DNA of 62,455 nt, counting the filler, from Mycoplasmatota bacterium (lineage in GTDB: Bacteria; Bacillota_I; Bacilli_A; RF39; UBA660): NCBI GenBank assembly GCA_012727915.1. It is 5 parts of 5 records of this genome, joined end to end, with 100 filler letters (N's around TTAATTAATTAA, not from the genome) between each part and the next. Parts side by side here need not be neighbours in the genome. Positions count along the whole stretch, not along the records: positions 7,229 to 16,617 come from JAAYGD010000010.1; 4 more parts are not named here. One strand, given 5' to 3'. A program made the position numbers. Shown here piece after piece: positions 9,001-12,000 of the stretch (position 1 is the stretch's first letter; every line of letters begins with the position of its first letter).

Positions 9001-12000
9001 TTTATACAAAGATTATAGTGTTAAAGCTTTTGATAGCGCTACAAATAGATTTGAAGATCATTTAGATGCTTACTACTGTATCTATGATATTACTAAAAAT
9101 ATTAATCATTTAGATAAGTGGAATAAAAGAACTAGTAGTTATGATATTAAATTGGAGGAAAAATGAAAAAAATAATAACATCAGAATCTGTTACTATAGG
9201 TCATCCCGACAAAATATGTGATAGAATATCTGATACAATATTGGATGAATTTTTAAAACAAGATAAAGAATCTAGAGTAGCATGTGAAACATGCATATCA
9301 AATAACTTAATAGTAGTATTTGGAGAAATAACTTCAAAAGGTGTAGTTGATATTAAAAAAACAGTAATAAATACAATAAAGGACATTGGATATAATAAAA
9401 ATAATGGTTTTGATATAGATAAGTGTAAAATTATAATTAATATTAATAAACAATCAGAAGATATAGCATTAGGATTAAAAGATAAAGATATAGGTGCAGG
9501 TGATCAAGGTATAATGTATGGATATGCTTGTAATGAAACTGATACTTATATGCCGCTTCCTATATATTTGGCACACAAATTATCTAAAAGATTAGAATAT
9601 GTTAGAACAAATAATATTATTTCTAATTTAAGACCTGATGGAAAAACTCAAGTAAGTGTCGAATATGAAAATAATATACCAAAAAGAATACATACTATAA
9701 TAGTATCTATTCAACATGATTCAAATATTATAAATTTAAAAAAGAATATTATAAAACATGTTATCTATCATGAAATAACAAATTTAATTGACAAAGACAC
9801 AATAATATTAATTAATCCAACAGGTAATTTTGTAATAGGTGGACCAGAAGGAGATAGTGGTTTAACTGGAAGAAAAATAATTGTGGATACCTATGGAGGT
9901 TACTCTAAACATGGTGGCGGTGCTTTTAGTGGTAAAGATTATACTAAGGTAGATAGAACTGCAAGTTATTATGCAAGATATGTTGCTAAGAATATTGTGG
10001 CATCTGGATTAGCAGGAAAATGCGAAATAGGAGTATCTTATGCTATTGGAATTTCTAATCCTATTTCAATATTTATAGATACATTTAACACTTCAATAAT
10101 TAAAGAAGAAGAATTATTAAAAATTATTAAAAAAGAATTTGATTTTAGACCATTATCTATGATTAAAAAATTAGATATGAAAAACATAGAATATAAAACA
10201 TATTCTTCTTATGGGCATTTTGGAAGAACAGATGTAAATGCTCCATGGGAAAATCTCAATAAAATAAGCATATTAAAAAAATATGTAAATGTAAAACATA
10301 ATAATTAATATGTTTTATATCTGTTAATTATCAAAATTTTAAAATTAAAATTTACAATTTAATACACACCAATATAATTTGCTTGACATTTTACATTAAA
10401 TGTGGTATTATTTGTTCACCAAATGAGGTATAAGGGGGATTATATGAAAGGGTTTGTTTTTGAATACAAAGATCAAAATGATTTTAACAAAAAAGAAAAA
10501 TCAGTAAAAAAATACAATATGTTGGCATACAAAAAATTATTATTTGAATACTATGAATCATTAAAAAATGGAGTTTTCTTGGGAAAATTAGTATCAAAAA
10601 ATAGTGCTGAAAACAGTAAACATTATGAGTTAACAATACCAACTGATGATATGTTTGTTAAAGTACATGGAGAAATGGTATTACATTATACTGTATACGA
10701 AAATAAAAACATTGTTCTATTAGAAACTATAACTCCTGAAAAGTTATTATTAGAAGGTCATAAATCAGAATTAAAAACATATAAAGGTGTTATGATATCA
10801 AAAGATAATGAAGAAAAAGATATGTTTAAAGTTAATTTATTAAACTCATTAAATAGACAATAATAATTGTCTATTTTTTATTTTTCAAAAAATGGTTGAA
10901 AATTCATTTACAATATGATATTATTTTAGTTGTCGATGCGGACCCTTAGCTCAGTTGGTTAGAGCATCCGGCTCATAACCGGGAGGTCGTAGGTTCGAGC
11001 CCTACAGGGTCCACCAATTAAAAAAAATAGATTAGCAATAATCTTTTTTTTTATGTTTAATAGATAAGGAGATAATATGAAAAAGAAATATATACTTGAT
11101 ATTGTAATTACAATTACATTATTATTATTAATGAGAATAAAATTTTTAAACTTTAATTTACATGAATTAATTGGATTATTAACATTAATATTATTTATTG
11201 TTCATAAATTTTTTAATTATAAGATAATTATTAAAACTATTAAAAAATGGAAACTATTTAATATTAAAACTAAGCTTGGATTTATACTTGATGTAATATT
11301 ATTTATTATATTTTTATTTATGATAATATCATCAATTATGATTTCTAATAAAATATTTGGTTTTTTAAATATTGAATCAGGAAATATTTGGAGTGATATA
11401 CATCATTTATCTGCATATTTAATGTTTATAGTAATATCTATTCATATTGGTTTTCATTATAAAAGTTTGTTATTATTAGTAGAAAAAAAATTGAAAGTTA
11501 AAAACACAAAAACTAAAAAATATTTATATATATTTATATCAATAATGATAATGCTATTTGGTTTTAAAGTTATGCTTAATAATAATTTTTATATGTATTT
11601 ACTAAAACCATTTGGTTATAAAGAAAAAACAGAAGAAAAAATTATTGAAAGTGATATAAATACTGATAAAATATCATTGGATGAATATTTAAAAGATAAA
11701 CATTGTGATGGTTGTTCAAGACATTGTTTATTAACTAATTTAAGATGTTCTAACGGACAAATTTATTTACAAAAAGCTATTGATGAATATAATAAATTAT
11801 ATAATATAGAAAAAGAAAACACTAATATTAAAATCGAGTTAAATGTTTTAGATTATTTTTTAGTAATGACTGCTATTGTATCAACTACACATTACATATT
11901 AAAAGTAAAAAAACTTAATTAATTATTGCATTTATATAATATAAAGTGTATAATTTTAAATGCATGCGGGTATGGCGGAATTGGCAGACGCACTAGACTT

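Follow-up and report, generated by a model that had tools for sequence, protein, structure and literature searches.

An antitoxin-free RelE/YoeB-fold core gene of RF39 bacteria that may act as a toxin-derived regulator of translation

What does a protein with the fold of a RelE/YoeB toxin do where no antitoxin gene accompanies it? The question is raised by g00844, a gene for a 139-residue protein in a window of 62,455 nucleotides (the whole stretch of DNA analysed, filler included) from a Mycoplasmatota bacterium of the order RF39 (assembly GCA_012727915.1); the contig that carries it (C66) starts, as stated earlier, at window position 7229. The earlier note on this DNA read the product as a ribosome-dependent mRNA endonuclease of toxin ancestry, domesticated into a housekeeping factor of translation or mRNA turnover. 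The features of the locus are collected in Table 1.

Table 1. Features at and around g00844, in window coordinates
Feature	Position	Strand	Description
metK	9163-10308	+	Pfam S-AdoMet_synt N/M/C; upstream neighbour in this genus only
Promoter	10383-10411	+	near-consensus sigma-A type, extended -10; 11/12 matches plus TG
Predicted leader	10418-10443	+	26 nt; five-G run 10434-10438 is the Shine-Dalgarno site and the family motif; start of transcription predicted from the promoter
g00844 ORF	10444-10863	+	139 aa, ATG start
RelE/YoeB-fold domain (residues 1-104)	10444-10755	+	predicted; fixed basic residues in helices 1-2, one additional helix (69-75), strands at the canonical active site variable
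Folded conserved tail (residues 105-139 and stop)	10756-10863	+	predicted; H106, YKG turn, helix 123-138 with K125, D126, F128 and K129; pLDDT 78-84
Terminator-like hairpin	10851-10885	+	overlaps stop codon; 11 bp, -9.9 kcal/mol, T run
tRNA promoter-like site, separate	10896-10924	+	10/12 matches plus TG
tRNA, CAU anticodon	10940-11016	+	tRNA-Ile2 type (presumed); commonest downstream neighbour of the family

As already claimed for g00844, the protein belongs to no known family: nothing in Pfam or NCBIfam reaches cut-off (the best, PF17116 at E 0.007, falls short of its family cut-off), neither PHROGs nor PADLOC nor a sequence search of the PDB returns a match, and toxin-family profiles matched none of 110 aligned members at E 0.05. 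A sequence search gathers 2115 homologs, the best 120 of which all lack a name. Of the 201 genomes of the order, 188 carry the gene, and 97 of the 98 genera are represented; a profile search of a class-wide sample was positive for 47 of 49 further members of the same taxonomic family; among 349 genomes of other taxonomic families, the only convincing match is that of G205, from another order (E 2.6e-14), and weak matches in G441, G297 and G426 were discarded because they vanished in the profile search or contained stops. Pairwise identities (median 0.58-0.62) correlate with RpoB distances over 19 genomes at a Spearman coefficient of 0.78, compared with 0.79 for UvrB in the same comparison, and with UvrB and MraZ at 0.49 and 0.39, respectively. 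A quickly built tree of 140 columns leaves 72 of its 141 forks open and places G205 on a very long branch. The description of the gene as part of the RF39 core thus holds, with distances that follow rpoB; that of a single-copy gene is true for 171 genomes only, since 17 of the 188 carriers have more than one match, and two residues listed as invariant are not, position 7 being E or D and H81 being present in 108 of 135 host proteins.

A divergent subfamily with an N-terminal extension, of which 49 proteins were used, includes copies carried by large phage contigs. In L344, a viral contig of 123.5 kb, the copy lies among genes for GroEL, a resolvase-like protein, dCMP deaminase, a UvsX-like recombinase and an exonuclease; the copy in L266 has the same gene setting, and two further copies are found on contigs of 122-125 kb. 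Gene context was read at L344 and L266 only, so that the term phage-type is an extrapolation for the remaining proteins. No tRNA lies within 12 kb around the phage copy. Searches of GenBank phages and PLSDB plasmids gave no match, nor did P0243 as sole query against viral contigs; the viral contigs L053 and L054 were rejected as host flanks of prophages.

The fold proposed earlier is upheld by a better model, calculated with AlphaFold2 from a 110-row alignment (mean pLDDT 87.4). Comparison with 48,161 chains using VIA ranks archaeal RelE (PDB 1wmi; Z 9.3, rmsd 3.1, 83 residues aligned) first and YoeB (PDB 7v6w; Z 8.3, rmsd 2.3, 84 residues aligned) second, followed by about 20 RelE, YoeB, YafQ, ParE and HigB chains that cover residues 1-106; Foldseek agrees, its top rows belonging to the same clan, none with E < 0.001. 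A phage-type homolog of 34% identity models with the same topology and ranking (VIA Z 8.2 and 8.1), and an Atlas model and structure search places the G205 protein among RelE/ParE/YoeB clusters (TM 0.61-0.74, depending on the target); a viral fold search gave no clear match. As judged from these models, membership of the RelE/ParE superfamily is firm for residues 1-104. With the type II toxins RelE and YoeB (1wmi, 7v6w, 2a6q; Z 7.2-9.3) the predicted structure shares a strand-helix-helix-sheet core of about 83 residues, basic helices 1-2 and a C-terminal helix after the last strand, here at 99-107; unlike them, it has an extra helix at 69-75, a folded tail of 35 residues and, as described below, varying residues at the positions putatively equivalent to the catalytic ones.

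The gene is a stand-alone unit of promoter, coding sequence and terminator. A promoter with at least 11 of 12 consensus matches precedes it in 110 of 125 distinct loci, and a terminator-like end follows in 115 of 125, as opposed to 7 of 30 uvrB ends; in the window, the hairpin was missed by a stricter scan because of its A/T-rich stem. The earlier caveat that an antitoxin ORF had been sought only by eye is now answered by a systematic test, which detects a coupled small ORF upstream in one of the 125 loci and downstream in one, compared with 18 of 18 upstream at YoeB loci used as positive control; the absence of an antitoxin neighbour is therefore confirmed across the family. Leaders measure 24-84 nt in 79 loci, and the one in the window is too short for an antitoxin ORF. 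Type III modules, whose antitoxin is an RNA, have an array of repeats of about 35 nt ahead of the toxin gene, and the leaders of this family carry G-runs of 4-6 nt only. A strong antisense promoter is found in none of the 125 loci, and an antisense RNA was rejected because the family does not keep the promoter-like site seen here on the minus strand at 10888-10860 (10 of 12 matches in 5 of 125 loci, 11 in none). Rfam returned nothing but tRNAs over seven loci, and no antitoxin domain (HTH, RHH or YefM) was matched by Pfam in the same chain.

True YefM-YoeB pairs do occur in the order, patchily (19 of 101 genomes over cut-off), and serve as an internal control that shows the behaviour of toxin modules in these genomes. 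In contrast to such type II modules, the family has no adjacent antitoxin gene, no toxin-profile match and, with its vertical core distribution, no patchy mobile one. The combination of a toxin-type fold, no antitoxin and vertical inheritance as a core gene argues for the domesticated cellular role that had been proposed, and on genomics the claim of domestication is well supported. The family is a real branch of the RelE superfamily, free of an antitoxin and apparently not described before: a literature search, with most subscription papers outside its scope, found no account of an antitoxin-free RelE-fold family. The available parts of PMC10868615 and PMC8629427 give lineage background only, and a 2025 survey, as far as its accessible text goes, dropped solitary genes before analysis and leaves RF39 unmentioned in its main text (PMC11980606).

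In the window metK does lie upstream, as noted before, but this is not the general setting: it does so in only 3 of 80 loci, where upstream neighbours belong to many families and the largest group accounts for 14. The downstream tRNA, previously called tRNA-Met, is by its sequence type instead tRNA-Ile2(CAU). Nor did the lineage need to rebuild an RNA-decay toolkit from toxin RNases, as had been suggested, because RNase Y, two RNase J and SmpB are present in all five genomes tested (completeness 94-100%) and tmRNA was found in G000; HPF is likewise present in all five, and replacement of HPF or SmpB by the protein was rejected on these grounds.

Which part of the toxin fold, then, has been kept? 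YoeB cleaves with E46, R59, R65, H83 and Y84 and docks on 16S rRNA through basic residues of helices 1-2 (PMC3814384), and HigB binds 16S rRNA likewise through basic residues of these helices (PMC4931118). The putatively equivalent positions of g00844 are G47, T64, V79, E99 and K100, a mapping based on a weak hhalign match to 13 YoeB proteins (strands 3-4 only, 20 columns, probability 0.75%, R65 on V79), on VIA end points (YoeB residue 84 on residue 100) and, for the remaining positions, on counting. On this mapping the catalytic residues are not conserved as such: G47 is found in 135 of 135 host proteins, position 64 is K in 99, position 79 is K in 31, R in 30, V in 26, I in 25 and T in 16 (K or R in 61), and position 99 is acidic in 111 (E in 93, D in 18). 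The basic face is different: K or R occupies positions 16, 22, 30 and 41 in all 135 host and all 49 phage-type proteins, and the basic tail positions 114, 125 and 129 are kept in 133-135 and 47-49 of these, respectively; a further set (17, 23, 31, 73 and 120) is basic and fixed or common in hosts and not retained in phage-type copies. Mean conservation is highest in two regions, helices 1-2 (0.86 in hosts, 0.78 in phage-type copies) and the tail (0.84 in both sets), and lowest in strand 4 (0.66 and 0.59, respectively).

H106, which no host copy lacks and which the G205 protein and 38 of 49 phage-type copies share, is accompanied by H75 in 131, E62 in 127 and E or D at position 77 in 119 of 135 hosts, so that a rewired active site is possible; in phage-type copies H75 is replaced by Y in 37 of 49 and E62 by K or R in 39 of 49. 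The proposal of an mRNA endonuclease is accordingly weakened by the variation at YoeB-equivalent positions and by strands that are the least conserved part of the protein, and keeps H106 in its favour as a residue that could serve a rewired site; on residue evidence, a nuclease role appears less likely than a binding one. The idea that the tail replaces the antitoxin fits poorly with a segment that is folded and among the best-conserved parts of the protein, phage-type copies included, unlike a labile antitoxin. In the Pfam search of the whole chain, no DNA-binding family matches the tail.

The leader, too, carries a conserved element. From 169 loci, 13 were dropped for want of a parsed start and the remainder reduced to 138 unique ones, whose relatedness means that the following counts overstate independence: GGGG lies in the Shine-Dalgarno (SD) window of 118 of 138 loci versus 67 of 498 neighbouring genes, GGGGTT in 89 versus 7, and a second GGGG further upstream in 50 versus 10. 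Among 45 neighbour genes with strong promoters, the corresponding counts are 12, 0 and 1. Once nine starts had been set by hand, the G-run was found in 120 of 144 distinct proteins, including deep branches and G205; ordinary SD sites are concentrated in a single subclade (13 of 16) and in long paralogs, and no residue tracks the type of SD in a telling way. In the metagenome set the G-run is present in 49 of 66 loci and the upstream copy in only 4, the latter being largely a trait of one large clade with two or three copies; the leader in the window has one. The control genes were picked because their G000 copies have a G-run. uvrB retains it in 0 of 28 parsed loci of 30 and mraZ in 19 of 29, the latter explained by the repeated operator of mraZ. 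rpoB (11 of 15 parsed of 30) and rpoC (11 of 22) also keep a G-run SD, which is thus not unique to this gene.

In 31 of 69 leaders the upstream G-run is flanked by a stem of at least 7 bp, compared with 3.3 expected from shuffles, and one stem position shows A-U, G-U and G-C among 36 stems, which were selected for having stems; a looser enclosure test gives little excess (35 of 45 against 31.4 expected), and RNAalifold found no consensus pairs when 48 of the 69 leaders were aligned on sequence alone. Spacing varies from 6 to 45 nt, which fits RNA sites better than a DNA operator. Genome-wide avoidance was rejected, as GGGG is not depleted from the coding sequence of G000 (524 observed, 468 +/- 15 expected), and so was a decoy RNA with many G-runs, the largest non-coding cluster in G000 containing three; the 3' end of 16S rRNA was not found in G000. 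Judging by sequence, the motif probably serves regulation, with the protein itself as the simplest candidate to act on it, and its repetition in a hairpin loop, in one large clade, hints at autoregulation; alternatively, it may be a message-stabilising site.

A docking face that is kept, a catalytic face that drifts, no antitoxin, a strong promoter, the SD motif and capture by phages are together best explained by a toxin-derived translation regulator, that is, a domesticated RelE-superfamily protein that controls translation by binding the ribosome or RNA and probably does not cleave, a reading to which we give a probability of roughly 0.4. As in YoeB and HigB, basic helices 1-2 would provide the contact with 16S rRNA in the A site of the 30S subunit, or with RNA; lacking the catalytic set, the protein would stall or gate initiation reversibly, which would make an antitoxin unnecessary. 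It would adjust its own level through feedback at the G-run leader, and phages would carry a copy to steer host translation. A point against this explanation is that a tail of 35 residues might be too large for the A site. In a bolder and rather doubtful form, the toxin fold would have become a lineage-wide, 30S-bound housekeeping regulator that tells G-run from ordinary SD sites, is autoregulated, possibly acts also on G-run genes such as rpoB, and was taken up by large phages as a means of redirecting translation in the host.

That the protein cuts instead of binding is the main rival, if on the doubtful side: it would then be a low-activity RNase whose rewired site combines H106 with H75, E62 or E77, and which is either ribosome-dependent or, like T4 RegB, site-specific and directed at G-run SD sites, its own included. 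Its ribosome-dependent form, which is the view of the earlier note, could stand in for Rae1 or RqcH, both of which were below cut-off in all five genomes of 94-100% completeness, and the conservation of H106 suits either form. Precedents are T4 RegB, a RelE-like phage RNase with two catalytic histidines and no known antitoxin that cuts its own SD and is conserved across T4 relatives (PMC3014915; PMC1702504), and M. tuberculosis RelE1, which cuts the anti-SD region and so sets an example for targets near the SD (PMC12620021). This cutting activity is at odds with the varying canonical positions, with the loss of H75, E62 and, in 11 of 49 cases, H106 from phage-type copies, with the undepleted GGGG of G000 coding sequence, which is not what a free GGGG cutter would be expected to leave, and with the presence of RNase Y and J. 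Structurally, RegB (2hx6) aligns with the phage-type model only at Z 2.7 (rmsd 4.0, rank 37) and is absent from the VIA top 50 for the host model. An unlikely alternative in which the leader motif serves another regulator is that of a ParE-like or other protein-binding factor tuning gyrase, RNA polymerase or a DNA-processing enzyme, to which ParE chains (Z 5.4-7.0) and phage copies set among DNA metabolism genes would point. ParE (PMC7180214) is without the RelE catalytic residues and has long N-terminal helices, which agrees with this role, and is without a C-terminal helix, which does not, given helix 99-107; moreover, RelE/YoeB chains outrank ParE in both the host and the phage-type model, and the basic character of the fixed surface is that of RNA binders.

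Improbable, in our estimate, is a toxin whose antitoxin is encoded at another locus, or which its own tail restrains as a fused module, and which is kept by addiction or for phage defence. The toxin fold and the existence of fused toxin-antitoxin genes (PMC11980606) would allow it, and the frequent neighbours tRNA-Ile2 and tRNA-Leu are integration sites (L054, L015, L024); against it stand vertical descent and presence in 188 of 201 genomes, compared with 19 of 101 for real YoeB modules, a strong promoter of constitutive type, the missing PADLOC match, the absence from plasmid and GenBank phage collections, and a highly conserved tail without a DNA-binding match. Least probable of all is a factor for maturation or quality control of tRNA-Ile2, for which it may be said that BECR folds include tRNases, that the gene stands directly upstream of this tRNA in 41 of 80 loci while the genes upstream of it change, and that the link recurs on deep branches and in G205. 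In its favour, too, ATA leads among the Ile codons of G000. This genome carries three complete CAU tRNAs, with a truncated fourth at the end of C1. Against it, 71 of 133 informative loci lack the link and only 8 of 66 metagenome loci show it, a terminator and the tRNA's own promoter separate the two, and no tRNA accompanies the phage copy; TilS is present in G000, so that its replacement was rejected too.

Set against known systems, the proposed toxin-derived regulator shares with RegB a RelE-like fold without known antitoxin, phage-borne copies and a conserved motif at its own SD, and differs from it in being structurally remote and mainly a host core gene, in a G-run instead of GGAG and in a cleavage that is only putative. 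Like ParE gyrase inhibitors, it belongs to the superfamily, apparently without the RelE catalytic set, and has long N-terminal helices; unlike them, it has no ParD. CsrA/RsmA, whose fold differs from the RelE type, is a functional analogy only, with a short G-rich motif at the SD and in leader hairpin loops, and departs from the present case in that no multi-site decoy RNA is seen in G000. The loops of CsrA contain GGA (PMC13443453). M. tuberculosis RelE1 (PMC12620021) has the RelE fold and acts at the SD/anti-SD region of the 30S subunit, and unlike the present family is a toxic RNase with an antitoxin.

RelE-superfamily proteins are otherwise described as antitoxin-controlled toxins or as defence effectors. 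A family present without an antitoxin in nearly all of these small genomes of gut bacteria is a clean case of toxin domestication, and is relevant to the long-standing debate on whether toxin genes of the chromosome are ever turned into regulators of the cell. It is directly testable, consisting of a single protein of 139 residues with a candidate RNA site and natural variants in the plain-SD clade, the phage copies and G205; if true, a role in translation control would be a routine function not seen before in a toxin fold.

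Members of the RelE/YoeB-fold family also occur as second copies at loci L031, L032, L036 and L039 (genomes G159 and G084) and among proteins P0122-P0169, where they are extended at the C-terminus and preceded by an ordinary Shine-Dalgarno site. The same set includes fusions in which the partner is a zinc ribbon, a membrane segment or a long domain, and P0122 carries the RelE/YoeB-fold domain twice. Divergent homologs encoded by two large phage contigs, which belong to a subfamily of ~50 related proteins, have groEL, resolvase-like, APRT-like, dCMP deaminase and UvsX genes as neighbours. 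In genome G048, a YoeB gene that contains an in-frame TGA is preceded by an intact antitoxin-like gene.

Coordinates of features near or related to the RelE/YoeB-fold gene
Feature	Location	Remark
DUF4405 membrane protein	window 11077-11922	four-cysteine cluster close to C-terminus
YoeB gene with in-frame TGA	L178 (G048:C1:69840-70079)	
Divergent RelE/YoeB-fold homolog	L344:6001-6444	large phage contig
Divergent RelE/YoeB-fold homolog	L266:5929-6375	large phage contig

The leaders of mraZ (L204-L233) contain GTGG repeats ~10 bases apart, which overlap the Shine-Dalgarno site, are kept across the whole order and represent the operator expected for MraZ. At L347-L375, rpoB has a conserved GGGGTGA ribosome-binding site and frequently a GTG start, and a G-run overlapping the rpoB end often precedes rpoC. 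Short non-coding repeats with paired G-runs in the genome under study (G000; contigs C8, C10, C28, C43, C60 and C64), several located at contig ends, are possibly insertion-sequence ends.

In G000, ATA is the most frequent Ile codon (13471, versus 12280 for ATT) and CGG is almost absent (3); a second Ile2-like CAU tRNA, incomplete at the contig end, lies within the first 60 bases of C1, after tRNA-Ile(GAT). In G205, from another order, the RelE/YoeB-fold gene is flanked by tRNA-Ile2 and a stand-alone Smr-like gene, assigned by eye (L048:3500-4600); Smr-like genes are also upstream of it in L133 and L309. The DUF4405 gene interrupts a tRNA-Ile2/tRNA-Leu pair whose members adjoin in most relatives. 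Prophages and integrase-like genes are located directly 3' of the RelE/YoeB-fold gene or of tRNA-Ile2/tRNA-Leu in L054, L053, L015, L024 and L101, making these sites an integration hot spot.
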